This document shows positions 838 to 23,269 of a DNA stretch of 32,000 nt, piece after piece (positions within the stretch are counted from its first letter, which is position 1; each line of letters begins with the position of its first letter). Made by a program: the position numbers and the translations under genes. Below the pieces are notes generated by a model that was not told the DNA's origin, made no database searches, and saw only the letters and a list, made by a program, of their open reading frames with translations. The DNA is from Candidatus Kuenenia stuttgartensis. GTDB taxonomy: Bacteria > Planctomycetota > Brocadiia > Brocadiales > Brocadiaceae. Location: contig NZ_LT934425.1 in assembly GCF_900232105.1 (NCBI RefSeq), positions 240,001 to 272,000 of the forward strand. Reading direction: 5' to 3'.

Positions 838-3401
838 TATAGCCAAACAAATCAAGTTTTGGAAATTCAGGATAACGCAGCATGTAATACACACCCCGTC
901 TGCTCCGCTACCACCCCTCTTTTTATAGGAGAAAGCCGGAAGTCCCCTCTAAAAAGCTAATCTTTACCCACAAATTTCAAGAGCACCGTAGTTGTACGGC
1001 CAATTGAGCTGAAGGCTAAGTGGTGTAAAGTTCGTAAGCAACTTCAATATCAGCCAAACGTGACATGCCTCGCCAAAGTACTTCACTTCCGGGATGGCCA
1101 TCACCACGGCGACCCAGATGACCGCCAAGTTTACCTAAAAGCCGCACGGCATCATTGAGGCTTGGAGGTAAATCAGGAGGCTCCTTGACCTTGTTCGCAA
1201 AAGTTGTCAATGCTTTCCATTCAGAATCGCTGAAGTAGACAGTACAAGGGACATCAGGTGTTTCTTGTCCTAAAGTAGTCAGGTAATGGATACGCCAAGC
1301 TATAATCATATCAATGGCCAAAGCGTTGCACAGACGACGGGCACTCTCCAACTGCCGGGACTCGACACGACAACCGCTCTTGATAATACGATGATAACAC
1401 TCAATACCCCATCGGCGAGCATACCATTCCAAACGTTCGTAAGCATCTTTTTCATGCTTAACCGCAACTGTAGTTAACAGCATCCATTCTAACCCATCAA
1501 TTCCGATAGGCGGATTGACTTCCTGCGCCAGCACCGCCCACACCCTGACCGCAGGCATATTCTTTTTTAGCATAGGTGGGCGTAGCGTAACAGGCATCGT
1601 TCGTACCATAAGTATTGCCTGACGTGCGGAGCGTTTCTCACTCGGAGGTATCAATATTTCGCGGGTACCTATAACCGGTTGCTGTTCCAGTTTAGTCCAC
1701 AAAAACTCGCATGATTCTTTATCATCAACAACCGTTCTATTGCGCGAACGTTCTGCACGGATCAGCAACTGAGCGCCATCAGGCGTATTATACTGCTCAG
1801 CGAATACCTCGTGAATATCGGCCTCACGATCTGCCACAACCACCAGCAAAGATTTGTTTCGACAGCGTTTCTGTACTTGCGATACTGCATGGTAACTCTC
1901 CACCCATTTCCAGCTTTCCTTCTCTTCGATAGGCTTCTTGTGTCGTTCATGTTTGCTGCCTATTCCGTCCCGCGCCCAGCATTGCACATTCAGAAGTCCC
2001 AAGGGTGTACCACTTTCAGTAAACGCCATCGTATCATGCACCATCAGTCCACGAACTTTTTCACTCTTAGTACCTATCGGCCCTAACCCCTGCGTATTCG
2101 GATGTGTGCTATAATTCAGAGTCGTAGTATCTTGCGCTACCAAAACCAAACTATTCTCCTTCACACGCTCTTCCGTGGCCTCATAATGAGCTTGCAATAT
2201 CGCCTTCCAATCTACATTCTCATTGTCAAGGAATCGGTATGCAGCCTTAGTCGCACTGACTGAGCCGCACGCCTGCGGAATGTTTGCCAAAGGTTTGTCA
2301 TAAAACATACCTGTCATTTCTAAAAGTCTTGAGGTCAATCGTGCATCGCCCAATTTTGTTCCTCCAAGTTCCGCTTCTATCCAATCCCGAGGCTCTTTTT
2401 GTGCCACTCTTTGGCGAACATGTACTTTGCCATCGGCACAACAACACAACACCGCCTGCCATTTCTTTTGCAACGGCATAACATAAACGTCTTTGACCGT
2501 TGCACCTGTTCCTTTTCGTCCTCGACCTTCCGTGCCTCCAACATACTTCCAGTTAGCTGCCCGATAACAGCTTCCGGAAAACCGTCCTCGTTCCACATAG
2601 GTTTCTAAAAGTACAGGACGATATTTATACACTCTTTCCCAATCATCTACCAAACGTGTTTGGCATTTTGCCAATACATGCGATGCCAAACATTTTACTC
2701 TTACCGTAGGCGCTATTAAATACCGACTGTTATTGATAACAAACGTATGATTCCGCTTACGTGCTTCCTCCGTCCATCCTATCCACTCGTCGCGACTTTC
2801 CACCCGTCTGGCACAGGCACTATAACTTAGCCCTCCTATCCATCCGTAATGTTCACTGCGTACAAGATACCGAAGTTGCGCCCCGCATAGGGGCCCACTT
2901 CCAAGATAATGATGCGCTTCTAACATGCTACGCCAAAGTTTCGAATGGAATCTCGTTGTAACCCGTATAATCTCTACGTCACCCAACTCCGCTAGCTCGC
3001 ATGACACTTCCGCAATCGGAGGCGCCTCCGCAGGTTTATTGACTTTTTGAAATGCATAATGCTTGTTCACCTTTGGAAGATTGATCTCTTTACGACGATC
3101 CAATTCCAATAACGCCTTGCGACAACTCATCTCTTGCAAACGGCCCGCTTGATTCCTCCAGTCCATCCATTCGCATACCAGACGCGACAGTTTACGACGC
3201 GATAGACAGGGTTCCTTTTGGATAGTTTCTGATAAACGCTTTATTACATCATCTGAAAATATTCGACCTCCTACTCTAAGCATGTACACAGTGTAACATA
3301 CGGTTAACACGGTGTCCAGCAAAAAATATGGGTCATCCCCAGCTAAAAAGAGGGGATTTAGGGGTGTGTAAATATTCTAAAATCATATTTGTTTGACTAT
3401 A
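838..3401 (-). mobile_element. Tn5-like (IS4 family) insertion sequence with long imperfect subterminal inverted repeats; ends approximate
   Basis: One long transposase ORF is flanked by inverted repeats with indels. Left 838-925 reads TATAGCCAAACAAAT...TACACACCCC...CCCCTCTTTTTA. The reverse complement of right 3344-3401 reads TATAGTCAAACAAAT...TACACACCCC...CCCCTCTTTTTA. No target-site duplication was found. Confidence 0.55.
1016..3283 (-). CDS. Fusion protein: DUF4338 (DruA-like) N-terminal domain + Tn5-like DDE transposase
   Basis: The N-terminal half (GRIFSDDVIKRL...MSCRKALLELDRR...GAQLRYLVRSEHYGWIGGLSYSACARRVESRDEWIGW...RVYKYRPVLLETYV...GSCYRAANWKYVG.TEGRGR) matches the DUF4338 pattern. 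The C-terminal half has the Tn5 N-domain (ELGGTKLGDARLTSRL...KAAYRFLDNENV) and the DDE triad contexts VAQDTTTLNY, VVADREADI and YARRWGIECYHRIIKSGCRVE. The ATG at 3283 is preferred over the TTG at 3322 by comparison with typical DUF4338 N-termini. Confidence 0.85.
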   Translation of the reverse strand: MLRVGGRIFSDDVIKRLSETIQKEPCLSRRKLSRLVCEWMDWRNQAGRLQEMSCRKALLELDRRKEINLPKVNKHYAFQKVNKPAEAPPIAEVSCELAELGDVEIIRVTTRFHSKLWRSMLEAHHYLGSGPLCGAQLRYLVRSEHYGWIGGLSYSACARRVESRDEWIGWTEEARKRNHTFVINNSRYLIAPTVRVKCLASHVLAKCQTRLVDDWERVYKYRPVLLETYVERGRFSGSCYRAANWKYVGGTEGRGRKGTGATVKDVYVMPLQKKWQAVLCCCADGKVHVRQRVAQKEPRDWIEAELGGTKLGDARLTSRLLEMTGMFYDKPLANIPQACGSVSATKAAYRFLDNENVDWKAILQAHYEATEERVKENSLVLVAQDTTTLNYSTHPNTQGLGPIGTKSEKVRGLMVHDTMAFTESGTPLGLLNVQCWARDGIGSKHERHKKPIEEKESWKWVESYHAVSQVQKRCRNKSLLVVVADREADIHEVFAEQYNTPDGAQLLIRAERSRNRTVVDDKESCEFLWTKLEQQPVIGTREILIPPSEKRSARQAILMVRTMPVTLRPPMLKKNMPAVRVWAVLAQEVNPPIGIDGLEWMLLTTVAVKHEKDAYERLEWYARRWGIECYHRIIKSGCRVESRQLESARRLCNALAIDMIIAWRIHYLTTLGQETPDVPCTVYFSDSEWKALTTFANKVKEPPDLPPSLNDAVRLLGKLGGHLGRRGDGHPGSEVLWRGMSRLADIEVAYELYTT

Positions 3402-3843: not shown

Positions 3844-4392
3844 TTAAGCAAATTTTTCAAATTTTTCTTTAGTAGCATTGCAAAGAGGGCACGTGTCAGG
3901 AGCTTCACCCTCCAAAGTATAACCACAAACGGAACATACCTGGATTGCATCAAGTTTTGGATCATTATTATTATTCACTGCATCTTTCGCCTTATCAAAC
4001 AGCTTTTTATGCATTTTTTCTGTTCCCAAAGCCCATTCAAAACTTCGTTGTGCATCATTTTCCTTCTGAAATTTTGCAACTTCAATAAAAACAGGGTACA
4101 TTTCATTGATTTCAAACTCTTCCCCCATCAGAGCAAGACCCAGATTCTTTAGCGTTTCACCGGGACCGAAAGTCGCAGCACTATTCGCCACAAATCCACC
4201 GTTCAAATGTTTTAATGTTTCATAATGGCTTCTTGCATGAATCGTTTCTGCATGAGCAATTGCCCTGAATAATCGACCGGCATTAGGATAGCCTTCTTTA
4301 TCAGCCAGGTTCGCAAAATGGGTGTAGCGCATAAAGGCCTGACTTTCACCCCCAAATGCATTAATCATATTCTGTTCTGTCATCTTTCTCAT
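3844..4392 (-). CDS. rbr: Rubrerythrin (ferritin-like diiron domain + C-terminal rubredoxin-like CxxC...CxxC)
   Basis: NAFGGESQAFMRYTHFANLADKEGYPNAGRLFRAIAHAETIHA... is followed by a second E..H helix pair and then CSVCGY...CPLCNATKEKF. A GGGAGG Shine-Dalgarno sits 9 nt upstream of the ATG at 4392. Confidence 0.92.
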   Translation of the reverse strand: MRKMTEQNMINAFGGESQAFMRYTHFANLADKEGYPNAGRLFRAIAHAETIHARSHYETLKHLNGGFVANSAATFGPGETLKNLGLALMGEEFEINEMYPVFIEVAKFQKENDAQRSFEWALGTEKMHKKLFDKAKDAVNNNNDPKLDAIQVCSVCGYTLEGEAPDTCPLCNATKEKFEKFA

Positions 4393-4466
4393 GTGTATAT
4401 TCCTCCCCACTGGTTTAATTATAAAATATGCTTAAAAACTTCCTTCATTGTCACTGGTTTTCATGA

Positions 4467-4757
4467 TTAATCTTTAAATTTTGCCATTGCATTGCTAAAA
4501 GCGGATTTCAGTGCTTCCCAAGCTGTTTCTGACCCTGCTTTGATATCTTCCCAGGATTCTTCTGCTGCAGATTTGAGTTGTTGGAGCTTGCCTTGCAATG
4601 CTTTATAGTCGTTTTCCAATGAATCGATGTTCTTATAGTATTCTATCTTTGCTTCTGCATTTGCCTTGTCCGCTTTGGCCTTTAAATTCTCAATCTTTGA
4701 TCTCCATTCCCTTAGTTGTGCATCTAGCTTTTCTTCATATGCCTTTCTCTTATCCAT
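4467..4757 (-). CDS. Small all-helical coiled-coil protein, function unknown
   Basis: 96-aa ORF with heptad-like K/E/A-rich sequence (KLDAQLREWRSKIENLKAKADKANAEAKIEYYK...). An AGGAG-like SD lies upstream, and the gene is packed between rbr and small membrane protein genes. Confidence 0.6.
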   Translation of the reverse strand: MDKRKAYEEKLDAQLREWRSKIENLKAKADKANAEAKIEYYKNIDSLENDYKALQGKLQQLKSAAEESWEDIKAGSETAWEALKSAFSNAMAKFKD

Positions 4758-4773
4758 AACAAATCTCCTCTTT

Positions 4774-4929
4774 CTAAATACGCCCGATTAAAAGTAAAAT
4801 GAGTAAAATTATCAGGATAAATCCCAAAGAACCGCTTGGATAAAACCCCCAACTTATACTATAGGGCCACGTCGGTAATGCCCCAAGAAGAGCCAAAACG
4901 AGTAGTACTATCAGTATCGTTCTTAACAA
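4774..4929 (-). CDS. DUF3309-family small membrane protein
   Basis: LLRTILIVLLVLALLGALPTWPYSISWGFYPSGSLGFILIILLILLLIGRI matches the DUF3309 pattern (..LLGALPTWPYS..WGY.PSG.LG....LL..GRI). AAGGAG sits 7 nt before the TTG at 4929, so the longer 69-aa ORF start is unlikely. Confidence 0.75.
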   Translation of the reverse strand: MLRTILIVLLVLALLGALPTWPYSISWGFYPSGSLGFILIILLILLLIGRI

Positions 4930-5005
4930 TTTATATCTCCTTTTAAAATGGTATAAGATGAAACATATTTTGCTTTTCCACACCTTGAAAGTCTGAAAAA
5001 GTATT

Positions 5006-5182
5006 TCAAACCGGCGGTCTTCGCCTCCCGAATAATCCGGCTATCAAAAAGAAGATAAAGACAACTATAAAAATAAAGAACAATATCTTTGCTATCCCTG
5101 CCGACGCAGCAGCCAACCCGCCAAAACCTAAAAAAGCAGCAACAATTGAAATGATAAAAAAAACCAAAGCCCAGTAAAGCAT
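5006..5182 (-). CDS. UPF0391/DUF1328 (YtjA-like) small membrane protein
   Basis: [42 protein letters not shown]... closely follows the YtjA pattern (M..WA..FL.IA..AA.LGFGG.AG.AAGIAKI.F). An AAAGGAG SD precedes the ATG at 5182. Confidence 0.8.
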
Positions 5183-5331
5183 AGTACTATCTCCTTTCAT
5201 TTTAAAAAAAATTTAAATAACGATTTCTACAGTTTTCATGCAAAAAACCCTTAACAACAAATGGGAAAAATATGTTTATCAAAAATGCACCTGCAGTAAG
5301 AATATCTGACAAAAGAATTGACTGACGCAGA

Positions 5332-6291
5332 CTACCATTGTTTTGTTTTGTCGCTATCTTCAACAAATAACTTGCCCGTCACAAGAAGGTTTTGAATTGC
5401 TTCCTGATAATACGGCTTTCCCCTGCTTGCAAGGGAACCAGGAAACGTTGCAAGCGTTATATCTGCACATGATTCTGTAAATTCATTCAGTACAATTGCA
5501 CACCGTTGATCATACGACAAAGTAACATTATGAATCATAGGAAAATCGAAAAGGCTTACCCAAAACTCGGTAGTTTTTTTATCGACTTCCGTAGCATTCT
5601 CCTTTATCGTCCTGACTTCCAGCCTGACTAATATTTCTTTTGATTCGATGTTGACTTTTATTACACTCGTTTTATAGTTTCTCTCGATACCTTCTACCAT
5701 AAGGTTATCTTCCTCTAACTGAAGGGACCCATGGCTTTGTTCAAGCCGTTCAATATCAACCATTCGCGAAAATTTATCGCCGGCTCCTTCCAAAATCAAC
5801 ATCTGCTTTTCAATTATTGTCTGTGCAGTTTGATACAAACGCGTTAAATACTCTTTATGCATATTATTGGATAGAGAAGAAACAGACATTTTTTCTTTCA
5901 TATATTCAAAAAATGGTTTCAGATTAAAACTTTCATGGAAATTATTTGCAATAAGTTCAAAATTTAACATTTGCTCATTCAGTTTAAACGTATCAGCTTC
6001 AGAAAATATTTTTATACTTGAATTGAACAGGTCTTCACGCAATTTATTTTCCGCTTCTTCTTGTTTCCTCATAATACCGGAGTAGACTTGAATTGCTTCC
6101 ATGGTGAGTACTCCTCTTTCTGTAAGTGCTTTAGCAGCCGCCCGTTCCTTTAAATAATTGGAGCCTAAATATCCGGAAACAAGAATAGCCGTTGCAACAA
6201 AAAGACTTCCGCATGGTCCGATATAACAACTGATAAGCCTTTCTACCCTGCTACAATATTGAATATTCGTCTCTTCTTTCTCATATTCCAT
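5332..6291 (-). CDS. Single-pass membrane protein of unrecognised family, paralogue A
   Basis: 319 aa. The N-terminal TM helix is GPCGSLFVATAILVSGYLGSNYL. A helical region follows, then a conserved C-terminal core FPMIHNVTL.YDQRCAIVLNEFTESCADITLATFPGSLA.RGKPYYQE.IQNLL.TGKLF. It aligns end to end with the 6477-7433 product. Confidence 0.75.
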   Translation of the reverse strand: MEYEKEETNIQYCSRVERLISCYIGPCGSLFVATAILVSGYLGSNYLKERAAAKALTERGVLTMEAIQVYSGIMRKQEEAENKLREDLFNSSIKIFSEADTFKLNEQMLNFELIANNFHESFNLKPFFEYMKEKMSVSSLSNNMHKEYLTRLYQTAQTIIEKQMLILEGAGDKFSRMVDIERLEQSHGSLQLEEDNLMVEGIERNYKTSVIKVNIESKEILVRLEVRTIKENATEVDKKTTEFWVSLFDFPMIHNVTLSYDQRCAIVLNEFTESCADITLATFPGSLASRGKPYYQEAIQNLLVTGKLFVEDSDKTKQW

Positions 6292-6476
6292 GCTTATTTT
6301 CTCTGTATAAAGGAATCAACATTCTTTTATCTTACAATCCTATATGAATAGGTTCTGTTTCAAAATAAATAACATTGATTTTAAAAAAGGCATTTCTATT
6401 ACTATTATTTCTCCAGAAAATCGTTACAGTTTTTTTAGACACTTTTCCAACAAAATACTTTGTTCATATTATAAGG

Positions 6477-7433
6477 CTACCAAAGTTCTTTGTTGATATT
6501 TTCATCAAATAATTTTCCTGTCATGAGGAGGTTTTGAATCACTTCCTGATAATAGGGTTTTCCCCTTACGGCCAAAGAACCAGGGAATGTTACCAGTGTG
6601 ATATCCGCACATGATTCTGTAAATTCATTCAATACAATTGCACACCGTTGATCATGTAACAGGGTAACATTATGAATCATAGGAAAATTAAAATAATCTA
6701 GCCTATACTCAGAAATTATTGTATTAACGTCTTCTGAAGATTTTCTCTGTGTTCTTATTTCCAACCTGACCAACATTTCTTTTAATTTATCGTTCGCTTT
6801 TCGTACATAAATTTTATAGTTTCTCTTTATCCCTTCTACAATAAGACTTTCTTCTTCTAGTTGAAGACTTCCCTGAATTTGCCCCAGCCTTTCCAAATCT
6901 ACCATTCGTGAAAATTTCTCACCCTCTCCTTCTAAAACCATCATTTGCTTTTTCATTATCGATTTTGCTGTAGCATATAAACGAGTTAAATATATTTCTT
7001 TCGGGGCATATCCCGAAGAAACTTGTATTTGTTCTCTTATAAAACTAAAAAAAGGTTTCAAATTAAAAGTTTCATGGAAGTTTAAAGCAAGAAGTTCCAA
7101 ATTTAATATTTGTTCTTCAAGTTTACAGGTATCCGGCATAGAAAACACTTTCATACTTGAATTAAACATATCTTCGTGCAATTTATTTTCCGCCTCTTCT
7201 TGTTCCCTCATCATATCGGAGTATATCTGTATTGCCTCCATGGTGAGTACACCCTTTTCTGAACGTGCTTTAGCATCTGCCCGCTCCTTTAAATAATTGG
7301 AACCTAAATATCCTGAAATAAGTATTGCAGTTGCAATAATCAGGCTGCCACATGGCCCTAGATAATGTGTAGTAAACTTTTCAAATTTAGTACCCAAATA
7401 TTTTTCTTTTTTAGCTTTTTCTTTCTCCGCCAT
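6477..7433 (-). CDS. Single-pass membrane protein of unrecognised family, paralogue B
   Basis: 318 aa with the same architecture as 5332-6291, roughly 60-65% identical by eye. Its start lies 2 nt after the stop of the upstream 7436-7774 gene. Confidence 0.75.
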   Translation of the reverse strand: MAEKEKAKKEKYLGTKFEKFTTHYLGPCGSLIIATAILISGYLGSNYLKERADAKARSEKGVLTMEAIQIYSDMMREQEEAENKLHEDMFNSSMKVFSMPDTCKLEEQILNLELLALNFHETFNLKPFFSFIREQIQVSSGYAPKEIYLTRLYATAKSIMKKQMMVLEGEGEKFSRMVDLERLGQIQGSLQLEEESLIVEGIKRNYKIYVRKANDKLKEMLVRLEIRTQRKSSEDVNTIISEYRLDYFNFPMIHNVTLLHDQRCAIVLNEFTESCADITLVTFPGSLAVRGKPYYQEVIQNLLMTGKLFDENINKELW

Positions 7434-7435
7434 GC

Positions 7436-7774
7436 TTATCTTCTCCTTGCCAGGAAAGAACCGTTTTTTTCTTCTAAAACGAAATCATATTGGATCGCAT
7501 TCTCATAGATATATATTAAAATCGGTTCTGACATTAATTCTTCATTCCGTATTATAAGAAGGCCACGTCCTTTCCCCGGCACATATAATGAATAGGATCC
7601 ATATTGTGCACATTTTGAAGAGTAAGTCTTTCCGGATGTTAGCATTTCAAGTTTTATCTCTGACCCTTCTGCTATTGGCTTTCCATCTTTTTTTATTGTT
7701 CCGTAAATTTCTCCCGAAAAAGCAATAGTAGTATTAAGCAACAGAAACAATATAACTATTAAATATTTTTTCAT
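7436..7774 (-). CDS. Small secreted beta-sandwich protein (carboxypeptidase-regulatory-like pattern)
   Basis: Signal peptide MKKYLIVILFLLLNTTIAFSGE is followed by IYGTIKKDGKPIAEGSEIKL...GSYSLYVPGKGRGLLII, typical of CarboxypepD_reg-like domains. An AAGGA SD precedes the ATG at 7774. Confidence 0.6.
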   Translation of the reverse strand: MKKYLIVILFLLLNTTIAFSGEIYGTIKKDGKPIAEGSEIKLEMLTSGKTYSSKCAQYGSYSLYVPGKGRGLLIIRNEELMSEPILIYIYENAIQYDFVLEEKNGSFLARRR

Positions 7775-7810
7775 TCCCGATTCCTTCATTGCCTCCAAAT
7801 GCTTAATCGA

Positions 7811-9511
7811 TTAGTAGGTATGCATTACTTTTAAAGGAGTTGTCATGATATAATCATTACTGGTCTGTGCCCCATGGCATTTAATACATGATGACAGCTT
7901 ACCGGCCAGCTTGATGGTCTTCGTCTCTCCGCCTTCTTCTTTCTCTGTGACCATAACGTCACCATTCGGTTCATATTTAATCCAGAACCAATCCTTCGCA
8001 TCAGGATCAAAACCTTTTATTTTCTGCATTACCGTTATAGAATCAATGTTTTTATCCTTTCTATAATTCTCTTTAATTATTATCGCACCTGGTTGTAATT
8101 CACCTTTCTTATGTTTAATTGCCTCATGGGCGAGATCGTTTACATATGTGGTAAGCCAAAACCCATGTGGTTCTGTTCCTTCATAAAAAGCATTTTTCCC
8201 GGGCCACATTTTCCAGTTTTCCCGATACTTTTCATTTTGCATTCTTTCCCATAGTTCTTTCGCCATTAATTCATAAACAGGCTCGGTTCCTTTCGGTTTT
8301 TCCTCTGTTATTTCTTTTTTTGTAATACTTTTTACAAAACTTGTATAAATATAATCATTAAGAAACTGGTTTTTGTGACAAGAAATGCAGTTATCGACTT
8401 TACCAGCCAAAGAAATAGTTTTCCCATATTTTTCTTCAGTCATTATTGCACCATTTGGTTTAAACTTGATCCAAAACCAATCATTGTTTTCAGGATTAAA
8501 ACCTTTTATCTTCTTCATTACGGTAATGTATTCTAAACTTTTATCAAACATGTAGTTTTCAGTAACGATAACAGCATCAAAAGGCATGGACTCTTTCTTA
8601 CTGACAATAGAATCATAAGCCACTTCATTTACATACGTGCTCAATAAAGTCCCATGTGGATCAATTCCATTATAGAAAGCCTCTTTATCTGGCCACATTT
8701 TCCAACTTTCCTGGTAATTGTCACTCTTCATTTTATTCCAGATTTCAGTAGCTATCCTTTTGGCATTCATAACTTCTTCTTCTTTCTTTTTTGTCTCGCT
8801 TATTTCTTTCCCTATGTCCACAATCGGACTTGTATAAATATAATCATTGTCGGTCTGCAAACTATGGCATTCTATACAATCAGCAACTTTTCCTGCCAAC
8901 TTTAATGCCTTATTATTTTTTTTAACAGTTGTAATTTCACCATCAGTTTCATATTTTACCCAAAACCAATCATTCGCAAGCGGATTGAAGCCTTTTATTT
9001 TATGCATTACTGTTATAAAGGTAATGTTTCTATCTGATGTATAATTCTCAGTAATAATTATCGCTCCAGAGGACAGCTTTCCTTTCTTATTTTTAATTGC
9101 ATCATATGCAATATCATTCACATAGGTAGTCAGCAATTCCCCATGTGGCTGCCTTCCTTTATAAAAGTCTCCCGTATCCGGCCATAACTTCCAATTCAGT
9201 TTGTAATTCTCTTTGTGTATCGTATCCCAGAGTTCCTTTGCTTTCCCCTCCGCATCTGTTATTATCATTTCCGTTTTTTCTGTTTCAGGCAATCCTTTCT
9301 CCGTCTCCAAAGATGTTCCTTCTCCTGTAATTCCGGTCTTTTCTTCTTCAGAAACGTATGGTGATTTCTCTTTAGCAGACGCAGGTGTACTTTTTTCGAC
9401 CGTTTCTGTTGATTCTTCAGATTTGTATCCCCTACCTATTTTTTTACATCCTATTATGGGGAAAAAACCAATTGCAATTACAACTAATAATGATAATAAA
9501 TATTTTTTCAC
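7811..9511 (-). CDS. Lipoprotein with three tandem cytochrome-P460/c'-beta-like domains (three CXXCH)
   Basis: The lipobox is FFPIIGC. The GTG at 9511 has a GAGGG SD; an alternative ATG lies at 9526. An E/K/T/S-rich linker follows. A block of about 140-150 aa is then repeated three times: W(K)(L/M)WP...PHG..L.TYVN...ENY...ITVM.KIKGF.P...DWFW.K...LAGK...C-I-x-C-H...NDYI. The haem motifs are CIECH (8864-8878), CISCH (8375-8389) and CIKCH (7874-7888). Confidence 0.75.
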   Translation of the reverse strand: MKKYLLSLLVVIAIGFFPIIGCKKIGRGYKSEESTETVEKSTPASAKEKSPYVSEEEKTGITGEGTSLETEKGLPETEKTEMIITDAEGKAKELWDTIHKENYKLNWKLWPDTGDFYKGRQPHGELLTTYVNDIAYDAIKNKKGKLSSGAIIITENYTSDRNITFITVMHKIKGFNPLANDWFWVKYETDGEITTVKKNNKALKLAGKVADCIECHSLQTDNDYIYTSPIVDIGKEISETKKKEEEVMNAKRIATEIWNKMKSDNYQESWKMWPDKEAFYNGIDPHGTLLSTYVNEVAYDSIVSKKESMPFDAVIVTENYMFDKSLEYITVMKKIKGFNPENNDWFWIKFKPNGAIMTEEKYGKTISLAGKVDNCISCHKNQFLNDYIYTSFVKSITKKEITEEKPKGTEPVYELMAKELWERMQNEKYRENWKMWPGKNAFYEGTEPHGFWLTTYVNDLAHEAIKHKKGELQPGAIIIKENYRKDKNIDSITVMQKIKGFDPDAKDWFWIKYEPNGDVMVTEKEEGGETKTIKLAGKLSSCIKCHGAQTSNDYIMTTPLKVMHTY

Positions 9512-9557
9512 TTTTATCCCTCTCATTAATTTTTTGATTTAATTTTAGTTTGCATTC

Positions 9558-9733: not shown

Positions 9734-11457
9734 GTATCTATTCAGCGTATTTTCACCCACTGTCGCTACGAGCTAGCAAAATCAGGCAATTCGCCACGGA
9801 ATAGCATCTGTAATGCCCGGCTCAAATTTACACCTTGTTTTCGACAGGTCGAGAGATAACTCCGAATGCGGCAGAAAATTTTCGCTCCCTCCAAAGAACG
9901 AAAACAGCCAGATATCTTCTGCTGAACCTTCGTCATCCTGATATCGTTTTCTGCCAAATTGTTCGTAAAGGGAACATTTTTATTGTCCATAAACCTCAAC
10001 ACATCACCCTCATACGTCCTCAATCGTTCCAGAAGATTCCGTGCCTTTGTCCTTTTTACCCTCCCCCTTTTTCCCTTACGGTTCGTTTCATCAGGAGGAG
10101 GGCTTTCGGCTTCTGCGTTTTGGAGTATCTTCCTATACCTTTGCCGGTATTTTTCTGACTCATCAGTTCCCAGCATTCCCCCGGCATCACTCGTCGCACG
10201 GTTTATCTCTTTAAGTAATGCTTTCATCTCTTTCGCCCACTCCTGCTTATTATCATCTTCCCACACACCATCCAATTCCCTCAAGTGGTGTGCATTACAC
10301 AACGCATGCGTACAGTTGCTATAGGTGTAATACGACTTCAAATGGTCGTGGCAAAGAATCCCCTTAAATTCAGGTAATATCCCGATACTATTTATCGCTT
10401 CTGTTCCACGTCTTTCATGCGGGAAAAAGTACGTCCACAAACTATTGGATGCACTGTGCAACCAATACCTGTCTCCATTCTTGTTGATACTAGTTTCATC
10501 CACATGCATCACCTCTGATTTTGCAAGTTCTTCCCTGGCTCTCACTTCGAAGGGTTCCAATGACTCGTAGGCTTCCCTGTTAAAGTTGTAAACAGAACCT
10601 TCACTCAGCGGTATCCCAATCTGTCCTTCAAAATACTCCTGTATCCTCTTGTAGGGTATCAATTGATACTGCGACATATAGACTGCATGCGCTTTCAAAT
10701 CCGGACCATACTGCACCGCCTTTGTTACCCCTTCCGGAAATGACGCTACAATCCGGTTCCCTTTCGCATCCTCTACTACCTCTGCACGATACTCCGTTAC
10801 TACACGCGAAATCTTTATATCAAACACCTGGCGTGCTTCGTAACCTACCACCTTGTATTTGCTGCGCGGATACTTCCTCCGGTCTACTTTTATTACTTCC
10901 ACCTCATCAGGATTGTCTACCTTTTTGAGCGTTACTCCATCACGGCCCTTTTGCCCGCCTGCCTTCCTTTCACCCTTCGCCTTGCTTTCTTTCTTGCGAT
11001 TCGGATCGCTTGAGGGAGGCTTGCTGCTGTTGCGGCTGTTCCGGTTCAGACGTCCTACCAGCAGTGTTATCAATAATACCAACAACTCTATCATTGACCT
11101 CACCGCCGGTGACAGCCCTTTCTCTTCTGAAAGCAGCTTCTCTACTTTTTGGAGTGTTGCGTCTACGTCTATATTCTCTATCGTCAATGGATGATACCTG
11201 TATATATAATTAGCCTGAAATTATCTACTGCATCTATTATACTGCAGGTTTTTTCACCCTTTTCTTTCGCTCTATAACACACCACAAGGGCTCGAAATTC
11301 TATAACTGAACAGACCCCACACACGTCTCTATGCACGGCATCTTGCTGCCTGTTTTTAACGCATTTACAAACATATACATACACTACCAGGTAAATTGCT
11401 TGTTTGTAACATTTCTGCTGTCAAGTAAATTCTAAATTATTTTCGCTGAATAGTTAC
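9734..11457 (-). mobile_element. Complete single-ORF IS66-family insertion sequence (1724 bp) with 8-bp target-site duplication
   Basis: The ends are GTATCTATTCAGCG (9734-9747) and the reverse complement of 11444-11457, GTAACTATTCAGCG, which fits the GTAA-type IS66 terminus. The flanking direct repeat AAATTTTG is identical at 9726-9733 and 11458-11465. Confidence 0.88.
9766..11187 (-). CDS. IS66-family transposase (TnpC-type)
   Basis: 473 aa with an N-terminal leucine-zipper-like helix, a basic region (NSSKPPSSDPNRKK...), MHVDETSINKNG, GILCHDHLKSY, ALCNAHHLREL, and C-terminal VPFTNNLAENDIRMTKVQQKISGCFRS. All are typical IS66 TnpC blocks. The start codon is TTG. Confidence 0.9.
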   Translation of the reverse strand: MTIENIDVDATLQKVEKLLSEEKGLSPAVRSMIELLVLLITLLVGRLNRNSRNSSKPPSSDPNRKKESKAKGERKAGGQKGRDGVTLKKVDNPDEVEVIKVDRRKYPRSKYKVVGYEARQVFDIKISRVVTEYRAEVVEDAKGNRIVASFPEGVTKAVQYGPDLKAHAVYMSQYQLIPYKRIQEYFEGQIGIPLSEGSVYNFNREAYESLEPFEVRAREELAKSEVMHVDETSINKNGDRYWLHSASNSLWTYFFPHERRGTEAINSIGILPEFKGILCHDHLKSYYTYSNCTHALCNAHHLRELDGVWEDDNKQEWAKEMKALLKEINRATSDAGGMLGTDESEKYRQRYRKILQNAEAESPPPDETNRKGKRGRVKRTKARNLLERLRTYEGDVLRFMDNKNVPFTNNLAENDIRMTKVQQKISGCFRSLEGAKIFCRIRSYLSTCRKQGVNLSRALQMLFRGELPDFASS

Positions 11458-12224: not shown

Positions 12225-13235
12225 CTAATGCCCTGATGGTTGTTTGCCTCTTTTTTCAAGGGCTTCTTCAAATGTGTAGATTTTTCCACCAAATCCTTTT
12301 TGGAATTTTACTGCATCATCCTTTTTGCCAAAGGCGATCCAGTTATCAGAACAAGCAGGAACGGCATCGCTATGATGGAGCATGTACATCTTTGAAACAT
12401 CCATCCATTCGCCGCTAATAAAATCCCTTGCCCTAACGGATGCTATTTTGTCTTTATTTCCTGCATGTTCCCATAACCCACAGTGTGGACATATATATGA
12501 TACTGTTTCACCATTGGTATAGGTAATCTGGTAATCAGTATTTTCATTCCCTTTCAGCGGCATATGACACAAAGGGCATCTCACCTCTTTTTGCACCGCC
12601 AAGTAGCCCTCACATTTCATGTTTGTATTAAAGTATGCGTTACTTCCTTTAAGTTCAAATTTTCGTTCTCCATCATGAAAACTGGCAGAAACAACTCTTC
12701 CCTGCATAAATACCCGATTAAGTTTGCTTTTGGTGTTTGTATGCATTACAGGGGTTGCGTTGTCACCTCCAAGCACAGGTTCCGTTGTTAATACCATAAT
12801 CTTACCACCATCGACTGTCACAGCGAAATTACCACCCTTGCCAGAGAATGCTATTTTCGCACTACCAGCGCTTTCTATCTTACCATATGCGGCGCAAATG
12901 ATTTTTGCAAATGCTATAGCTGCTTGTTTTTGTTCTTCATTTTTTGCATCAACATAAATACGCACCCATTCTCCCGGTTTCGTTGCGTATGCAATTTTTA
13001 CCCCTGTCAGGTCTGTACCCTTAAATATACTTTCTTCCAAAGACAGAGCGGCCACCGTCTGGCACCCCATGTTGAAAGAAATCAATTCGCAAGGGCAGGG
13101 AATATCACAACTGCACCCTTCTACAAAAACACCTTCAATATGATATGTTTCCTCCGCAGTAACATTTGAGACAAAGAACAGAGGAATACCAACAAAAAAC
13201 AGTATCAATAAAAGAATATAATATTTTGTACGCAT
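12225..13235 (-). CDS. Secreted fusion protein: DUF1326 domain + Cys4 ribbon + NosL-like domain
   Basis: A signal/anchor MRTKYYILLLILFFVGIPLFFVSNVTA comes first. The DUF1326 pattern is YHIEGVFVEGCSCDIPCPCEL...GCQ. A CPLCHM...CPHCG ribbon follows. The NosL-like C-terminus is ARDFISGEWMDVSKMYML..SD...IAFGKKDDAVKFQKGFGGKIYTFEEA. Confidence 0.7.
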   Translation of the reverse strand: MRTKYYILLLILFFVGIPLFFVSNVTAEETYHIEGVFVEGCSCDIPCPCELISFNMGCQTVAALSLEESIFKGTDLTGVKIAYATKPGEWVRIYVDAKNEEQKQAAIAFAKIICAAYGKIESAGSAKIAFSGKGGNFAVTVDGGKIMVLTTEPVLGGDNATPVMHTNTKSKLNRVFMQGRVVSASFHDGERKFELKGSNAYFNTNMKCEGYLAVQKEVRCPLCHMPLKGNENTDYQITYTNGETVSYICPHCGLWEHAGNKDKIASVRARDFISGEWMDVSKMYMLHHSDAVPACSDNWIAFGKKDDAVKFQKGFGGKIYTFEEALEKRGKQPSGH

Positions 13236-13355: not shown

Positions 13356-14741
13356 TCATACCTTTAATGGTAGCCCGGCATTGGACCATGCCTGCATCCC
13401 ACCGGCAAGATTGTGTACGTTTGTATAGCCATGTAGTTGTAAGTAACTTGCCCCTATACTCCCGCGATATCCCACGCGACAGGTAACTATAATTTTTTCT
13501 TCTTTGGGCAAATCCACTTCTTTAAGAAGCATGTCCGATAGCGGCAAAAGCTCCGCTTCTTCTATATGCCCTTTGTTCCATTCAGATTCCGACCTGACGT
13601 CTATTATATACTGATACGTACTACTCTTAATTTCATCGCGCAATTCCTGCGCCGAGATCTGAGGAAGTCTTTGTATAGGAAACCCCTGCTCCTGCCAGGC
13701 CGAAATGCCGCTTTGCAAATATCCAATAATATTGTCGTAACCAATCCTGTAAAGGATGGAGCGCATATCTCTATACTTTGTGTCTTCGGTAAAGACCAGG
13801 AGGATGTTAGACTCAGGCTCCACCGCCATACCGATCCAGTTCGCCATTTGACTCCCAAAGCCGATATTAATACTTCCCGGAATATGTACGCCGCCATAGG
13901 CAGATGCATCCCTTGTATCAATGATCTTCGCTCCTCTTTTCAGTGCTTCCCTAAATTGCAAGGGTGTCAGAGGTCTGTCATCGTTGAATTTATCCAGCCA
14001 TGGTGCACCTTTCATGTTCATTGATATAATGTGAGAAAAACTCTTTGGGCGATCAGGGTATTCCCGCATTAAAGATTTTTTAAATTCATCCAAAGAATCA
14101 AGACGTAGAAGAGGGTTCGCGTGGCGTTCATATCCCAGCGTTGTGCTGGTTTTAGAACTAATGCCTTTTCCGCAAAGAGAGCCTTGTCCATGTGCCGGAT
14201 AAACCCCTAAACGATCGGGTAGTTTACCTAATTTTTTATAAATACTTTCATAAAGATTTTTTACCTGTTTTTCTAAAAGTTCTTTACCTGCCAGGTCAGG
14301 CCTTCCTACATCCCCGACAAACAGAAGATCACCGGTTAGCATAAACCATGGTTCCTCCTCCGACCTGCTTGTGTCTTTTACTAAAAGCGAGATGGAATGC
14401 GGCGTGTGTCCGGGAGTATGTAGCACCTCAAGTATTGCCGTACCTAATTCAATAGTGTCTCCTTCTTTTAAAGTCTTGTGTTTAAAGGCAACGGGCGCTT
14501 TCTCGTAAAAATAGATATCAGCGCCTGTACGGGCGGTGATTTCCAAATTGCCGCTTATATGATCGGCATGGATATGTGTTTCGATAACGTGTGTTATCTT
14601 CATTCCCTGATTTCTCGTTATATCAAGGTATTCCTGTATCTCTCTTTTAGGGTCAATAACTGCCGCAACTTTTGCAGCGGGGCAACCAATCACATAAGAA
14701 AGGCAACCGATCCCAGGAGTTTCAATTTGTTTGAAATACAT
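13356..14741 (-). CDS. MBL-fold persulfide-dioxygenase-like domain fused to two rhodanese domains (CstB-like architecture)
   Basis: The metallo-beta-lactamase motif is THIHADHISG. The C-terminus has two rhodanese-like modules, the last with the active-site loop CRVGYRGS. A GGCAAGGAG SD precedes the ATG at 14741. Confidence 0.85.
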   Translation of the reverse strand: MYFKQIETPGIGCLSYVIGCPAAKVAAVIDPKREIQEYLDITRNQGMKITHVIETHIHADHISGNLEITARTGADIYFYEKAPVAFKHKTLKEGDTIELGTAILEVLHTPGHTPHSISLLVKDTSRSEEEPWFMLTGDLLFVGDVGRPDLAGKELLEKQVKNLYESIYKKLGKLPDRLGVYPAHGQGSLCGKGISSKTSTTLGYERHANPLLRLDSLDEFKKSLMREYPDRPKSFSHIISMNMKGAPWLDKFNDDRPLTPLQFREALKRGAKIIDTRDASAYGGVHIPGSINIGFGSQMANWIGMAVEPESNILLVFTEDTKYRDMRSILYRIGYDNIIGYLQSGISAWQEQGFPIQRLPQISAQELRDEIKSSTYQYIIDVRSESEWNKGHIEEAELLPLSDMLLKEVDLPKEEKIIVTCRVGYRGSIGASYLQLHGYTNVHNLAGGMQAWSNAGLPLKV

Positions 14742-14801
14742 GTTAATTCTCCTTGCCGGGTATTTGAGCATTTGGCAATAGTTCACCCACCTATAAATAA
14801 A

Positions 14802-20507: not shown

Positions 20508-21101
20508 ATGGAAAAAATAAAGTTGCAGGCGTTATCAGCTCTCATATCCCGATACGTAGACAGAAAAAGGCTCATCCGGGAAAATCCACATATCACAAAT
20601 GAAATGATTGATATTTTTTTTCAAAAGGGCTCAGGGGACAGTGAAGCGGGAACATCCATTGCCTCATCCCCTCATTCTTTATCACCAAATAAGAAATTTC
20701 ATACATTAGTTATTCATACAGACGGCGCTTCGCGTGGAAATCCGGGAAAGGCGGGAGCTGGCATTGCAATTTTTGATGGCAATTATCATCTTGTTGAAGA
20801 AATCGGTAAATTTTTAGGAGAAGCCACCAACAATGTAGCGGAATATGAAGCCATGATTCTTGCCGCCCAAAAAGCCGTCTCTTACTATCCCGGCAAAGTA
20901 GTTTTCAAAACTGACAGCGAACTGCTGGTACGGCAGGTAAAGGGCATCTATCGGGTAAAAAATCCTACGCTGATATCTCTCCATAAAAAACTCATGACTC
21001 TTTTTAAAACGCTGCCATTGTGGGAAATATCTCATGTTCCCAGAGAAGAAAATTCTCTTGCAGATACCATTGCCAACAGAGCGATTGACTCCGCATCATA
21101 A
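20508..21101 (+). CDS. RNase H (type 1) family protein with ~65-aa N-terminal extension
   Basis: IHTDGASRGNPGKAGAGI...ATNNVAEYEAMILA...FKTDSELLV.Q....YRVKN...REENSLADTIAN carries the DEDD active-site contexts of RNase HI-like proteins. Confidence 0.85.
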   Translation: MEKIKLQALSALISRYVDRKRLIRENPHITNEMIDIFFQKGSGDSEAGTSIASSPHSLSPNKKFHTLVIHTDGASRGNPGKAGAGIAIFDGNYHLVEEIGKFLGEATNNVAEYEAMILAAQKAVSYYPGKVVFKTDSELLVRQVKGIYRVKNPTLISLHKKLMTLFKTLPLWEISHVPREENSLADTIANRAIDSAS

Positions 21102-22789: not shown

Positions 22790-23269
22790 CTATTGCCCTG
22801 ATTTTTTATGCTTTGAAGGAGAAAATGAGGCGAAGACCATTAGCGAAATACCTACACAAATCAAGCCATCCGCTACGTTGAAGGTGGGCCAATGATATTT
22901 TTCGCCCAAGTGCAAATCAATAAAATCCCTCACGCATTTAAACCATATCCTATCCCACAAATTTCCAATAGCACCCGCCAGAATAAGCCCTAAAGCAACG
23001 TTCGAACTAAAGATATTTTTATCTGATTTAATATAAATAAATAAAATTGCCGCAATAGCCAGAAGAGAAAGTAAGATAAATATATTGGCTTTCCCGGGAA
23101 ACATCCCAAAGACTATCCCTTTGTTTTCGCTTTGTATTATATTTAGAAACCCGGGAATGATCGTTATTTTTTTAAACCGGTCTGGCTGAGAAAAAACATA
23201 CCATTTTGAAACAATATCAGCAAAAATGCCACTTACAATAGTAATGACAAACGAAATTTTTTTCTTCAT
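22790..23269 (-). CDS. lspA: Lipoprotein signal peptidase (signal peptidase II)
   Basis: NKGIVFGMF, GAIGNLWDRI, VRDFID and WPTFNVADGLICVG motifs with four TM segments. Confidence 0.92.
   Translation of the reverse strand: MKKKISFVITIVSGIFADIVSKWYVFSQPDRFKKITIIPGFLNIIQSENKGIVFGMFPGKANIFILLSLLAIAAILFIYIKSDKNIFSSNVALGLILAGAIGNLWDRIWFKCVRDFIDLHLGEKYHWPTFNVADGLICVGISLMVFASFSPSKHKKSGQ

Follow-up and report, generated by a model that had tools for sequence, protein, structure and literature searches.

Three tandem cytochrome P460/c'-beta-type domains in a predicted lipoprotein of Candidatus Kuenenia stuttgartiensis

Overall organization of the protein

In the protein encoded by kuste4356 (KSMBR1_0260) of Ca. 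Kuenenia stuttgartiensis, a predicted lipid anchor is followed by three domains of the cytochrome P460/c'-beta family in tandem; the family is known, but a lipid-anchored triple-domain layout of this kind has not been described for it. The gene lies at 7811..9526, on the minus strand, of the 32,000-nt stretch of DNA that was analysed (the window); it starts with ATG and is given in the ORF list as 571 aa plus stop. An exact-sequence look-up of the 571-aa protein returned SOH02776.1 (Ca. Kuenenia stuttgartiensis), and the correspondence of KSMBR1 and kust locus tags is that of the supplement of PMC7438415. The automatic label of the gene is already 'cytochrome P460 family protein'. No study of this protein was found in the literature searched by locus tag (kuste4356, KSMBR1_0260, KsCSTR_31030, CAJ75118), nor in work that links P460 to anammox, to Kuenenia or to sequence-similarity networks. 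A first-pass annotation, made from the sequence alone, had given the extent of the ORF and the coordinates of three CXXCH motifs exactly, and had described the lipobox, tether and repeats set out below.

The product is almost certainly an exported lipoprotein, judged from its predicted lipidation signal. The signal peptide (9446..9526, minus strand) has an n-region rich in K and, after it, a hydrophobic h-region, and ends in the lipobox IIGC (aa 24-27, nt 9446-9457); the N-terminus up to the predicted lipidation site reads MRGIKVKKYLLSLLVVIAIGFFPIIG, followed by Cys27, which would become residue 1 of the mature protein, as expected of a bacterial lipoprotein. Of the 16 closest homologues, 15 have a Cys after the hydrophobic stretch, only the TIG-fused P0016 lacking it, and the equivalent lipobox Cys is found in all anammox homologues. 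An lspA gene lies within the window, at 22790-23269. The lipobox is followed by a 63-residue tether (9257..9445, minus strand; aa 28-90), 73% of which is E, K, T, S or G. The tether is predicted to be disordered, with a pLDDT of 22-33 in the full-length AF2 model, and its constraint is relaxed (dN/dS 0.41).

A repeat of approximately 145 aa then occurs three times, all on the minus strand: domain 1 at 8828..9256 (aa 91-233), domain 2 at 8339..8764 (aa 255-396) and domain 3 at 7814..8275 (aa 418-571), with HMM envelopes of aa 82-241, 245-404 and 408-571. Pairwise identity is 48-53%, and the likeness is far beyond chance, with scores of 248-296 bits for each repeat when it is compared with an HMM built from the others. 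The same series of motifs runs in the same order through all three (WK[LM]WP, PHG, TYVN, ENY, ITVMxKIKGF[ND]P, DWFW[VI]K, LAGK, CIxCH, NDYI), and each has one C-terminal CXXCH: CIECH at aa 217 (nt 8864-8878), CISCH at aa 380 (nt 8375-8389) and CIKCH at aa 547 (nt 7874-7888). The His of each of these motifs is, on sequence grounds, almost certainly the proximal ligand of one predicted haem c. No further members of the family were found elsewhere in the window.

Linker 1 (8765..8827, minus strand; aa 234-254) is E/K-rich and modelled with low confidence as helical in part, its region having a pLDDT below 50 over aa 222-245 and a dN/dS of 0.38; linker 2 (8276..8338, minus strand; aa 397-417) has a pLDDT below 50 over aa 395-416. 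Purifying selection acts on each of the three domains, with dN/dS values of 0.14, 0.16 and 0.10 for domains 1, 2 and 3, domain 3 being the most conserved. The full-length AF2 model (pTM 0.35) consists of three folded domains, a disordered tether and disordered linkers, with no confident packing between the domains. The protein is almost certainly built of three independently folding P460/c'-beta domains, strung like beads. As to an intramolecular pseudo-dimer or pseudo-trimer in place of a homodimer, the full-length model speaks neither for nor against it.

Family and fold of the repeats

Membership of the P460/c'-beta family, which the first-pass annotation had proposed from the order of the motifs, is borne out by profile and structural comparisons. 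Pfam PF16694 (Cytochrome_P460) matches the whole protein in three stretches with 84.9 bits (E 7.9e-24), and the repeats taken singly exceed the cut-off of 27 bits (domain 1, 39.6; domain 2, 35.2; domain 3, 33.0 bits). Profile-profile alignment with the N. europaea P460 clade (hhalign) has a probability of 97.6% (E 2.6e-12), and a profile of the clade to which the domains belong (the His/Lys/Thr clade, see below) matches P460/c'-beta chains only in the PDB (best E 1.8e-9, 7EAD). A single-sequence phmmer search of the whole protein against PDB sequences did not find P460, indicating that profiles are required to detect the likeness. NCBIfam has no model for the protein, only sub-threshold CXXCH-driven matches; sub-threshold Pfam matches (MtrC/MtrF, NrfB, cytochrome c7 and others) were rejected as CXXCH noise.

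The AF2 model of domain 3 (pLDDT 83, pTM 0.79) is predicted to have the five-stranded, twisted antiparallel beta-sheet fold that is specific to the family. The top eight Foldseek matches of this model in the PDB are all c'-beta or P460 structures (7ead, 6hiu, 9hrk, 6hih and others), with TM scores of 0.46-0.63 and probabilities of 0.99-1.00, followed by a steep fall; the best is 7EAD (E 3.6e-4). The CXXCH of all three domains aligns with that of 2JE2, 7EAD and 9HRK. The cytochromes c'-beta of M. capsulatus (6HIH) and T. thermophilus (7EAD) are the best structural and profile matches of the domains, while the CytL P460s of N. europaea (2JE3) and M. capsulatus (6HIU) share with them the Pfam family, the beta-sheet fold and the C-terminal CXXCH.

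Characterised members of the family are single-domain homodimers (PMC11928373), and the best 120 canonical matches are all 150-229 aa long, in agreement with the earlier statement that known members have a single domain. The Kuenenia protein departs from the soluble, single-domain form of both P460 and c'-beta, in having a lipobox and, on a single chain, three domains. The triplication had been called unusual, and this holds: triple-domain relatives number four among the best 150 representative clusters, none of them characterised in the literature searched.

The haem pocket

Three independent alignments gave the same pocket columns, and the residues of known members that fall in them are precisely those of Table 2 in PMC11928373. 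The capping position (the His of PHG) corresponds to Phe41 of N. europaea P460 (NeP460) and Phe29 of the T. thermophilus protein. The cross-link column (the x of IIIxENY) corresponds to Lys70 in NeP460, Lys78 in M. capsulatus P460, Phe61 in the T. thermophilus protein and Met79 in NeCP-beta, and the carboxylate column (the T of ITVM) to Glu96, Asp102 and Gly82 in the first three of these. Listed as cap, cross-link and carboxylate columns, the pocket of domain 1 consists of His128, Thr159 and Thr172, that of domain 2 of His291, Thr322 and Thr335, and that of domain 3 of His454, Lys485 and Thr498, giving the triads H/T/T, H/T/T and H/K/T. The question of the cross-link Lys, which could not be judged by eye, is settled by the alignment to N. 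europaea P460: it occurs in domain 3 only (K485, codon nt 8072-8074), where hhalign places it on NeP460 Lys70. With Thr, Thr and Lys at this position, the protein appears to fuse two c'-beta-type domains with one P460-type domain.

The domains nevertheless depart from both types. The cap is Phe or Arg only in the family as described, and lies directly above the iron in all solved structures (PMC11928373); with its His in all three domains, the protein belongs to another clade, which is uncharacterised. The distal carboxylate of P460 sensu stricto, an invariant Glu in the canonical clade, is replaced by Thr throughout (T172, T335, T498). Domains 1 and 2 resemble c'-beta in having no Lys, and domain 3 does not; the c'-beta pocket is however hydrophobic (Phe cap, Phe61, Gly82; Phe/Phe/Gly in McCP-beta and TtCP-beta), whereas the pocket found here is polar (His, Thr, Thr). 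The His cap, the carboxylate-column Thr and the single Lys-bearing domain, as read from the alignments, are new observations for kuste4356, and so is its place in the large clade described below.

Closest to P460 is domain 3, in which the Lys of the Lys70/Lys78 column is followed by Glu (KE motif); in the alignment, K100 of NeP460 has its counterpart in the conserved Lys of VMxK. In contrast, His stands in place of Phe41/Arg50 and Leu in place of Arg44, a residue that enforces haem ruffling in NeP460, and the host, unlike those of characterised P460s, is a strict anaerobe. NeCP-beta of N. europaea (7S5O), a 'halfway-house' c'-beta, likewise has a polar pocket and a polar cap; its cap is Arg46 rather than His, and it is a single-domain, possibly monomeric protein with no lipid anchor. 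Its peroxidase-like activity indicates that the fold supports chemistry besides NH2OH oxidation. The P460 haem of octahaem HAO/HOX enzymes (e.g. kustc1061 of K. stuttgartiensis) is similar in principle only, as a cross-linked, ligand-binding c-haem; there a distal Asp/His pair contacts NH2OH, but the fold is unrelated, the cross-link is to Tyr rather than Lys, and the enzyme is an octahaem trimer and a very highly expressed part of core catabolism.

Three-domain homologues occur in other anammox bacteria, for example in Ca. Jettenia caeni (535 aa; GAB63313.1, labelled 'putative heme protein') and in Brocadia sp. (553 aa), with a lipobox followed by three tandem domains of the same clade. Each of the three Kuenenia domains is orthologous to the Brocadia domain in the same position. 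The residues of the cross-link column differ, being K/K/K in the Jettenia proteins, T/A/K in the Brocadia-type P0003 and T/T/K in Kuenenia.

Proposed function of the three domains

The function that we infer is small-molecule haem chemistry, with NO/NH2OH or peroxide, on a tethered protein. The best overall explanation, which we put at about an even chance, is a lipid-tethered protein in which domain 3 has a ligand-binding P460-type haem and domains 1 and 2 act as c'-beta-type partners. The disordered stalk of about 60 acidic and basic residues would keep the domains away from the membrane. Domain 3 would retain the ancestral His/Lys/Thr pocket of the clade, and its haem would be reactive, of low potential and capable of cross-linking; at its open distal site this haem may bind a small ligand, either NO or NH2OH or possibly peroxide, with the distal His serving as a proton-transfer or hydrogen-bonding residue in place of the absent carboxylate. 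Loss of the Lys in domains 1 and 2 would leave c'-beta-type haems, expected at higher potential: loss of the cross-link raises the potential of NeP460 from -400 mV to -290 mV in K70A, and that of McCP-beta is -205 mV (PMC11928373, Table 3). These two domains may hold the product (NO), relay electrons to a soluble carrier, or both; it has been suggested that c'-beta may bind NO produced by P460 (PMC11928373). The transcript is weak in steady anoxic growth (RPKM 11.6 and 27.9, compared with 20,000-55,000 for hydrazine synthase), which suggests an accessory function at a membrane surface, scavenging or protective, rather than one in core anammox catabolism.

Several features count against this explanation. 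The first-pass annotation had tentatively suggested a new architecture for N-oxide or hydroxylamine handling; the layout is indeed undescribed, but the handling of NH2OH is not supported by the pocket, in which Thr replaces, in all domains, the Glu96 or Asp102 needed for NH2OH oxidation in characterised P460s (PMC11928373). The equivalent of Arg44 is Leu. Formation of the cross-link depends on peroxide, and NeP460 made anaerobically has none; Kuenenia being strictly anaerobic, K485 may never be cross-linked. Lastly, the strongly conserved cap His would also fit a sixth haem ligand, blocking the binding of a ligand.

The His/Lys/Thr clade

The clade defined by this pocket is large (2481 clusters at 50% identity, E<=1e-3) and uncharacterised. 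Its members are found mainly in anaerobic and microaerophilic lineages, including Thermodesulfobacteriota, Pelobacteraceae, Anaerolineaceae, Campylobacteraceae and anammox bacteria, and tandem arrays recur among them. In 215 domains, the cap is His in 208, the cross-link column is Lys in 173 (80%) and the carboxylate column is Thr in 182, with all three together in 151; the His is conserved at the level of the Cys and His of CXXCH. In 15 domains the triad is H/T/T, the His having been retained despite loss of the Lys. The fusion partners of close members include cupredoxin (P0020) and class I cytochrome c (P0019, P0053, P0059, P0075, P0050, P0024), a hint of a redox enzyme. A single-protein genome scan returned close relatives only.

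The conservation of the cap His, even where the Lys is lost, and the position of the capping residue over the iron could also be read as those of a sixth ligand. All haems would then be low-spin and His/His-coordinated, the protein would be a tethered tri-haem shuttle ferrying electrons along the membrane surface, corresponding, in the beta fold, to the six-coordinate relatives that the helical cytochromes c' have; the role of the conserved Lys would be structural or the binding of a propionate. Fusion to other electron carriers and a tandem multi-haem layout with flexible linkers, typical of shuttles, are in line with this. However, Lys in four-fifths of the domains is difficult to account for in a protein that only carries electrons, and no six-coordinate member exists among the solved structures of the fold. 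By analogy, placing His for Phe with no backbone shift would put it at about 4 Å from the iron, a hydrogen-bonding rather than a bonding distance. Moreover, it is rather catalytic end-point domains that typically have cytochrome c or cupredoxin fused to them, and with disordered linkers of about 20 residues between the domains (pTM 0.35) there would be no fixed haem wire. We regard the shuttle as an unlikely reading, albeit one with a real chance of being right.

Gene neighbourhood

The gene is followed, 12 nt downstream, by kuste4357 (KSMBR1_0259; 7436..7798, minus strand), which encodes 120 aa with a signal peptide and is probably co-transcribed with it. Next are kuste4358 (KSMBR1_0258; 6477..7433, minus strand), a 318-aa protein with an N-terminal membrane anchor, and kuste4359 (KSMBR1_0257; 5332..6291, minus strand), its 319-aa paralogue, the two genes being 75% identical at the nucleotide level (blastn). 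Neither kuste4357 nor kuste4358 has a match in Pfam or the PDB. A gene of the kuste4358 type is found downstream of the three-domain gene in Kuenenia and Brocadia sp., and the family is widespread elsewhere with no P460 gene. An Acidobacteriota MAG has a homologue of kuste4357 (31% identity, E 7e-19) that forms a pair with a 310-aa gene, again with no P460 gene there; a role of the 120-aa and 318-aa proteins as dedicated P460 partners was therefore rejected. A scan for promoters and terminators found nothing exceeding shuffled expectation.

Synteny with two other Kuenenia genomes is confined to a 5.1-kb block (window 4462-9557; blastn), which also covers small ORFs beyond kuste4359, and the surroundings are rearranged and flanked by transposases. 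The Jettenia and two-domain loci have no neighbours in common with the kuste4356 locus, and a formate/nitrite transporter is located upstream in Kuenenia Bin_40 only. A second ORF, of 541 aa, at the Jettenia locus was considered as a duplicate copy and rejected as unrelated. The gene neighbourhood in this window provides no link to the nitrogen cycle.

Peroxide-defence genes lie within 6 kb at three loci: a rubrerythrin at window 3844-4410 at the kuste4356 locus, rubrerythrin and AhpC at that of K. hertensis, and a catalase adjoining a two-domain homologue. They agree with a role of the protein in the periplasm of an oxygen-sensitive anaerobe, as a haem peroxidase or a scavenger of peroxide: the distal His would be the acid-base catalyst, as in classical haem peroxidases, electrons would come from cytochrome c or cupredoxin, and the Lys cross-link would be a consequence of exposure to peroxide. 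The peroxidase-like activity of NeCP-beta, whose polar pocket lacks the Lys (PMC11928373), the dependence of cross-link maturation on peroxide, and the mainly anaerobic or microaerophilic hosts of the clade are compatible with such a role, as are low expression in a strictly anoxic steady state and fusions that resemble the donor domains of bacterial peroxidases. On the other hand, the peroxide-defence genes are absent at two other loci, and homology among the Kuenenia genomes ends at window 4462, short of the rubrerythrin gene; the neighbours are non-syntenic and the association may be due to chance. No distal Arg is evident as a partner of the His, and we rank a peroxidase as improbable, behind the shuttle.

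Degeneration, with the repeats as relics of a non-haem protein or domains 1 and 2 as inactive spacers after loss of the clade-typical Lys, would suit the very low transcript and the rearranged, transposase-flanked surroundings, but is highly improbable given the intact ORF in every examined genome of Kuenenia, Brocadia and Jettenia, the dN/dS values of domains 1 and 2, and the retention of CXXCH, cap His and other family-invariant residues in all three domains.

Implications for the P460/c'-beta family

P460 and cytochrome c'-beta serve as models of how one fold tunes haem either to the oxidation of NH2OH, a source of N2O, or to the binding of NO. A review of 2025 (PMC11928373) covers soluble single-domain proteins only, mostly proteobacterial and with Phe or Arg caps, and asks why the two types coexist in some organisms and whether there is a link between what they do. 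The protein described here bears on that link, with one Lys-bearing and two Lys-less domains placed on a single chain in a host that has NO, NH2OH and hydrazine at the centre of its metabolism. Its His cap is unrepresented in the solved structures, and its clade is found mainly in anaerobes, where a peroxide-dependent cross-link should be hard to make.

We tentatively propose, as a possibility on the unlikely side, that proteins with the His/Lys/Thr pocket form a functionally distinct class of P460-fold haem enzymes, widespread in anaerobes and exchanging electrons with cytochrome c or cupredoxin. The Kuenenia protein would then be a 'Rosetta-stone' fusion, in which a catalytic P460-type haem, capable of cross-linking, passes NO or electrons to two c'-beta-type haems of the same tethered chain. 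If true, it would be direct genetic evidence for a functional coupling of P460 and c'-beta, so far a matter of speculation in the field; and if the protein turns over NH2OH or NO, it would add a previously uncounted route of N-oxide conversion in anammox reactors.

Domain architecture and family assignment

The ORF at 7811-9526 on the reverse strand of the window, encoding 571 aa, is a real gene, and on translation all of the elements described in the first-pass annotation were seen. The lipobox (aa 24-27) is part of the N-terminus MRGIKVKKYLLSLLVVIAIGFFPIIG/C and is succeeded by an E/K/T/S-rich tether of 63 residues (aa 28-90; E/K/T/S/G = 73%). The three repeats have HMM envelopes of aa 82-241, 245-404 and 408-571, a pairwise identity of 48-53%, and a common series of ordered motifs: WK[LM]WP, PHG, TYVN, ENY, ITVMxKIKGF, DWFW, LAGK, CIxCH and NDYI. 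The three CXXCH motifs were found at 8864-8878, 8375-8389 and 7874-7888, where the first pass had placed them. The product is an exported chain with a lipobox and three P460-fold domains, each carrying a haem-c motif; the 32,000-nt window holds no further copy of the domain. It does hold lspA, the lipoprotein signal peptidase gene (22790-23269, reverse strand; Peptidase_A8, E 5.7e-33), so that the organism has the machinery needed by the predicted lipobox.

By exact-sequence look-up the protein is KSMBR1_0260 (SOH02776.1, ‘hypothetical protein’), from strain MBR1 of Candidatus Kuenenia stuttgartiensis; it corresponds to kuste4356 (PMC7438415 supplement). Its expression is low: the RPKM averages 11.6 when ammonium is limiting and 27.9 when nitrite is, a difference that is not significant; in the same tables the hydrazine synthase genes reach 20,000-55,000 (PMC7438415).

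The Pfam model Cytochrome_P460 (PF16694) matches the whole protein in three stretches (E 7.9e-24), and taken one by one the repeats score 39.6, 35.2 and 33.0 bits, all above the gathering score of 27 bits. These significant matches uphold the proposed assignment of the repeats to the P460/c'-beta family. The relationship to the solved members, as judged from sequence, is distant: phmmer with the whole protein against PDB sequences gave no relevant match. A profile built from 107 clade members matched P460 and c'-beta chains only (7EAD, E 1.8e-9; 7S5O, 1.3e-8; 2JE2, 7.8e-7; 6HIU, 5.1e-6), and profile-profile comparison with the N. europaea P460 clade (30 members) gave a probability of 97.6% (E 2.6e-12, 119 columns). 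A confident AlphaFold2 model of domain 3, made from 26 domain sequences (pLDDT 83, pTM 0.79), was compared with the PDB by Foldseek; the best eight matches are all c'-beta/P460 structures (TM 0.46-0.63, probability 0.99-1.00), after which the probability drops to 0.33 or less. We regard the identity and architecture of the protein as nearly certain.

Three folded domains are seen in the full-length model, for the most part at a block pLDDT of 70-90. The first 90 residues are modelled as disordered (pLDDT 22-33), and confidence is low in both linkers (aa 222-245 and 395-416). Together with a pTM of 0.35, these features of the model support a ‘beads on a string’ arrangement behind a long stalk; the domains may or may not pack like the homodimers of solved members. 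All three domains are under purifying selection; comparison with the K. hertensis orthologue gives dN/dS values of 0.14, 0.16 and 0.10 for domains 1, 2 and 3, and of 0.41 for the signal peptide and tether jointly and 0.38 for linker 1. The values for domains 1 and 2, which lack the P460 lysine (see below), indicate that these domains are maintained and not decaying.

Haem pockets

Three functionally decisive pocket positions have been defined (PMC11928373, Table 2). The cross-link residue is Lys70 in NeP460, Lys78 in McP460, Met79 in NeCP-beta and Phe61 in the c'-beta protein TtCP-beta; the distal carboxylate position is occupied by Glu96 (NeP460), Asp102 (McP460), Ala (NeCP-beta) or Gly (McCP-beta and TtCP-beta); the capping residue is Phe41 (NeP460), Arg50 (McP460), Arg46 (NeCP-beta), Phe32 (McCP-beta) or Phe29 (TtCP-beta). 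NsP460 has Lys106, Ala131 and Phe76 at the cross-link, carboxylate and cap positions, respectively (PMC11928373). These columns were mapped onto the repeat by three independent alignments, all in agreement, and the mapping is reliable since it recovers the published numbering (F29, F61 and G82 of 7EAD; the K and D of McP460). The cap falls on the His of PHG, the cross-link residue on the x of II[IV]xENY, and the carboxylate on the Thr of ITVM.

The cap, cross-link and carboxylate positions are His128, Thr159 and Thr172 in domain 1, His291, Thr322 and Thr335 in domain 2, and His454, Lys485 and Thr498 in domain 3. The question of a cross-link lysine, left open at first pass, is thus answered by alignment: the P460 lysine is present in the C-terminal domain only. 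By the definitions of PMC11928373, the chain is predicted to be two c'-beta-type domains fused to one P460-type domain. The carboxylate that characterised P460s require for NH2OH oxidation is absent from all three domains in the alignment. All three have a His cap, in contrast with the solved P460/c'-beta members, none of which has one, and Arg44 of NeP460 is replaced by Leu; the pocket is polar, His/Thr, in every domain. NeP460 made anaerobically lacks the cross-link until treated with peroxide, an important caveat on any ‘true P460’ claim for KSMBR1_0260, and K485 may often be un-cross-linked in a strict anaerobe.

The His-cap clade and its tandem proteins

When the domain profile was run with HMMER over the full set of 1.84 billion representative proteins, 2481 clusters matched at E<=1e-3, 179 of them at E<=1e-30. 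Pockets were counted in 215 domains, from the best 150 of the 2481 cluster representatives and 16 close homologues: the cap is His in 208, the cross-link column Lys in 173 and the carboxylate column Thr in 182, with the full His/Lys/Thr triad in 151. In the canonical N. europaea P460 clade, by contrast, Lys and Glu are invariant. Named members include the anammox genera Kuenenia, Jettenia, Brocadia and Loosdrechtia, as well as Thermodesulfobacteriota, Pelobacteraceae, Anaerolineaceae, Campylobacteraceae and Thiodiazotropha.

Single-domain proteins make up 124 of the 164 clade proteins examined; a further 29 have two domains and 11 have three. Triple-domain homologues are rare, in keeping with the earlier view of the triplication as unusual; three matched stretches occur in 4 and two in about two dozen of the best 150 of the 2481 clusters. 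The best 120 relatives of NeP460, on the other hand, are all 150-229 aa long, and on this comparison tandem arrays belong to the His-cap clade, not to the canonical one. In a neighbour-joining domain tree, Kuenenia domains 1, 2 and 3 pair with their counterparts 1, 2 and 3 in P0003, a protein of Brocadia type. Anammox proteins with two domains correspond to domains 2 plus 3, and other lineages duplicated the domain independently (P0016, P0018, P0019). Two single-domain anammox proteins carry the full triad (P0027 of K. hertensis, 208 aa; P0026 of Ca. Loosdrechtia aerotolerans, 201 aa), so that one-, two- and three-domain versions coexist in this group.

The cross-link column of multi-domain proteins mostly reads KK or KKK, as in Jettenia caeni GAB63313.1 (‘putative heme protein’, KKK); domains with and without Lys are mixed in 11 of 40 (TK, TTK, TAK, QK, MK, KQ, KKQ, KS). 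Clade domains also have other fusion partners: a cupredoxin (P0020), class I cytochrome c in one or two copies (P0019, P0053, P0059, P0075, P0050, P0024), a Cache sensor domain (P0145) and TIG domains (P0016, P0017). A redox-catalytic end-point domain would be expected to be fused to small electron carriers. DUF7282 is a further partner in other organisms.

Genomic surroundings

The P460 gene is followed on the same strand by genes for a secreted 120-aa protein (7436-7798; gap 12 nt), an N-terminally anchored 318-aa protein (6477-7433; gap 2 nt) and a 319-aa paralogue of the latter (5332-6291), a duplication in Kuenenia; none of the three products has a match in Pfam or the PDB. In Brocadia sp., too, a member of the 318-aa family comes after the three-domain gene. 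The pair of genes for ~110-120-aa and ~310-aa proteins recurs in an Acidobacteriota MAG (L016 5666-6933; 31% and 42% identity) with no P460 gene at the locus. The ~310-aa family, well conserved across phyla (42-47% identity), also occurs by itself in KSB1 and Bacteroidota.

Only window positions 4462-9557 are homologous at the nucleotide level to two other Kuenenia genomes, with differing flanks beyond. The homology breaks at 9557/9558, 31 nt ahead of the P460 start codon, and is not regained further out; the native upstream region and promoter are therefore not conserved between genomes. An IS66-family transposase gene, KSMBR1_0261 (9766-11187, reverse strand; 311 bits, NCBIfam; homologue of kustc1050), lies 240 nt upstream. 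In Kuenenia sp. Bin_40 the orthologue is instead preceded by genes for a formate/nitrite transporter (L005 2929-3843; PF01226, E 3.4e-68) and a sigma-54 response regulator (L005 1392-2765), neither of which is at the corresponding position in the window. With non-conserved flanks, a widespread 318-aa family and the gene pair found without P460, the context gives no firm functional partner.

The downstream flank includes a 768-aa ORF (1016-3322, reverse strand) that joins a Druantia DruA-like domain at its N-terminus (Pfam E 1.7e-35) to the DNA-binding, DDE and dimerisation domains of a Tn5-type transposase, an unusual fusion of defence domain and transposase. Elsewhere in the window are a 336-aa ORF with DUF1326 and NosL-like domains (12225-13235, reverse strand; NosL is a copper-chaperone family), an adjoining metallo-beta-lactamase-rhodanese fusion of persulfide-dioxygenase-like architecture (13356-14786, reverse strand) and, unrelated to the P460 gene, a 197-aa RNase H/RVT_3 ORF (20508-21101, forward strand) followed immediately by ABC ATPase and class IV aminotransferase genes.

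Three loci have peroxide-defence genes no more than 6 kb from a P460-family gene: rubrerythrin in the downstream flank here (3844-4410, reverse strand), rubrerythrin and AhpC in K. hertensis (L001 4073-5123), and a catalase adjoining a two-domain homologue (L004 5223-6740). These neighbours are non-syntenic and may be a coincidence.

Possible mechanism

A general model, to which we give an even chance, has domain 3 as the reactive domain and domains 1 and 2 as electron acceptors or NO binders. Domain 3 would keep the ancestral reactive pocket of the clade and be the site of ligand chemistry, its distal His acting as hydrogen-bond donor or proton relay; in HAO and kustc1061 a distal His, with Asp, has such a role. 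Domains 1 and 2, without a cross-link, would lie at higher potentials (NeP460 moves from -400 to -290 mV when its cross-link is lost, and McCP-beta is at -205 mV; PMC11928373) and on that account could take up electrons or bind NO as the product. Coupling of P460 and c'-beta as separate proteins has been suggested (PMC11928373).

The main rival takes the near-invariant His as a sixth haem ligand, making the protein a tethered electron shuttle; we think this unlikely. A peroxidase role is more improbable still. In its favour one may cite that NeCP-beta has peroxidase-like activity, that the cross-link needs peroxide to mature, that the hosts of the clade are anaerobic, and that there are scattered, non-syntenic peroxide-defence neighbours. 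Under the model of a reactive domain 3, N-oxides or NH2OH would be favoured over peroxide as substrate, on account of the P460 family and the host.

KSMBR1_0260 is not categorically new, and its 90% cluster, which includes CAJ75118.1/Q1Q527 of strain RU1, contains RefSeq WP_172953463.1, ‘cytochrome P460 family protein’, so that family membership is already in automatic annotation. A literature search found no paper on KSMBR1_0260, on P460-family proteins of anammox bacteria or on P460 domains in tandem, and the words ‘tandem’, ‘multi-domain’, ‘fusion’, ‘lipoprotein’ and ‘Planctomycet’ are all absent from the text of the 2025 superfamily review (PMC11928373). The multi-domain, lipid-anchored architecture is rare and uncharacterised, the pockets form a mixed Thr/Thr/Lys set, and the His-capped clade is unaddressed in the literature. 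This clade, found largely in anaerobes, forms a large and uncharacterised sister group to the studied P460/c'-beta proteins.
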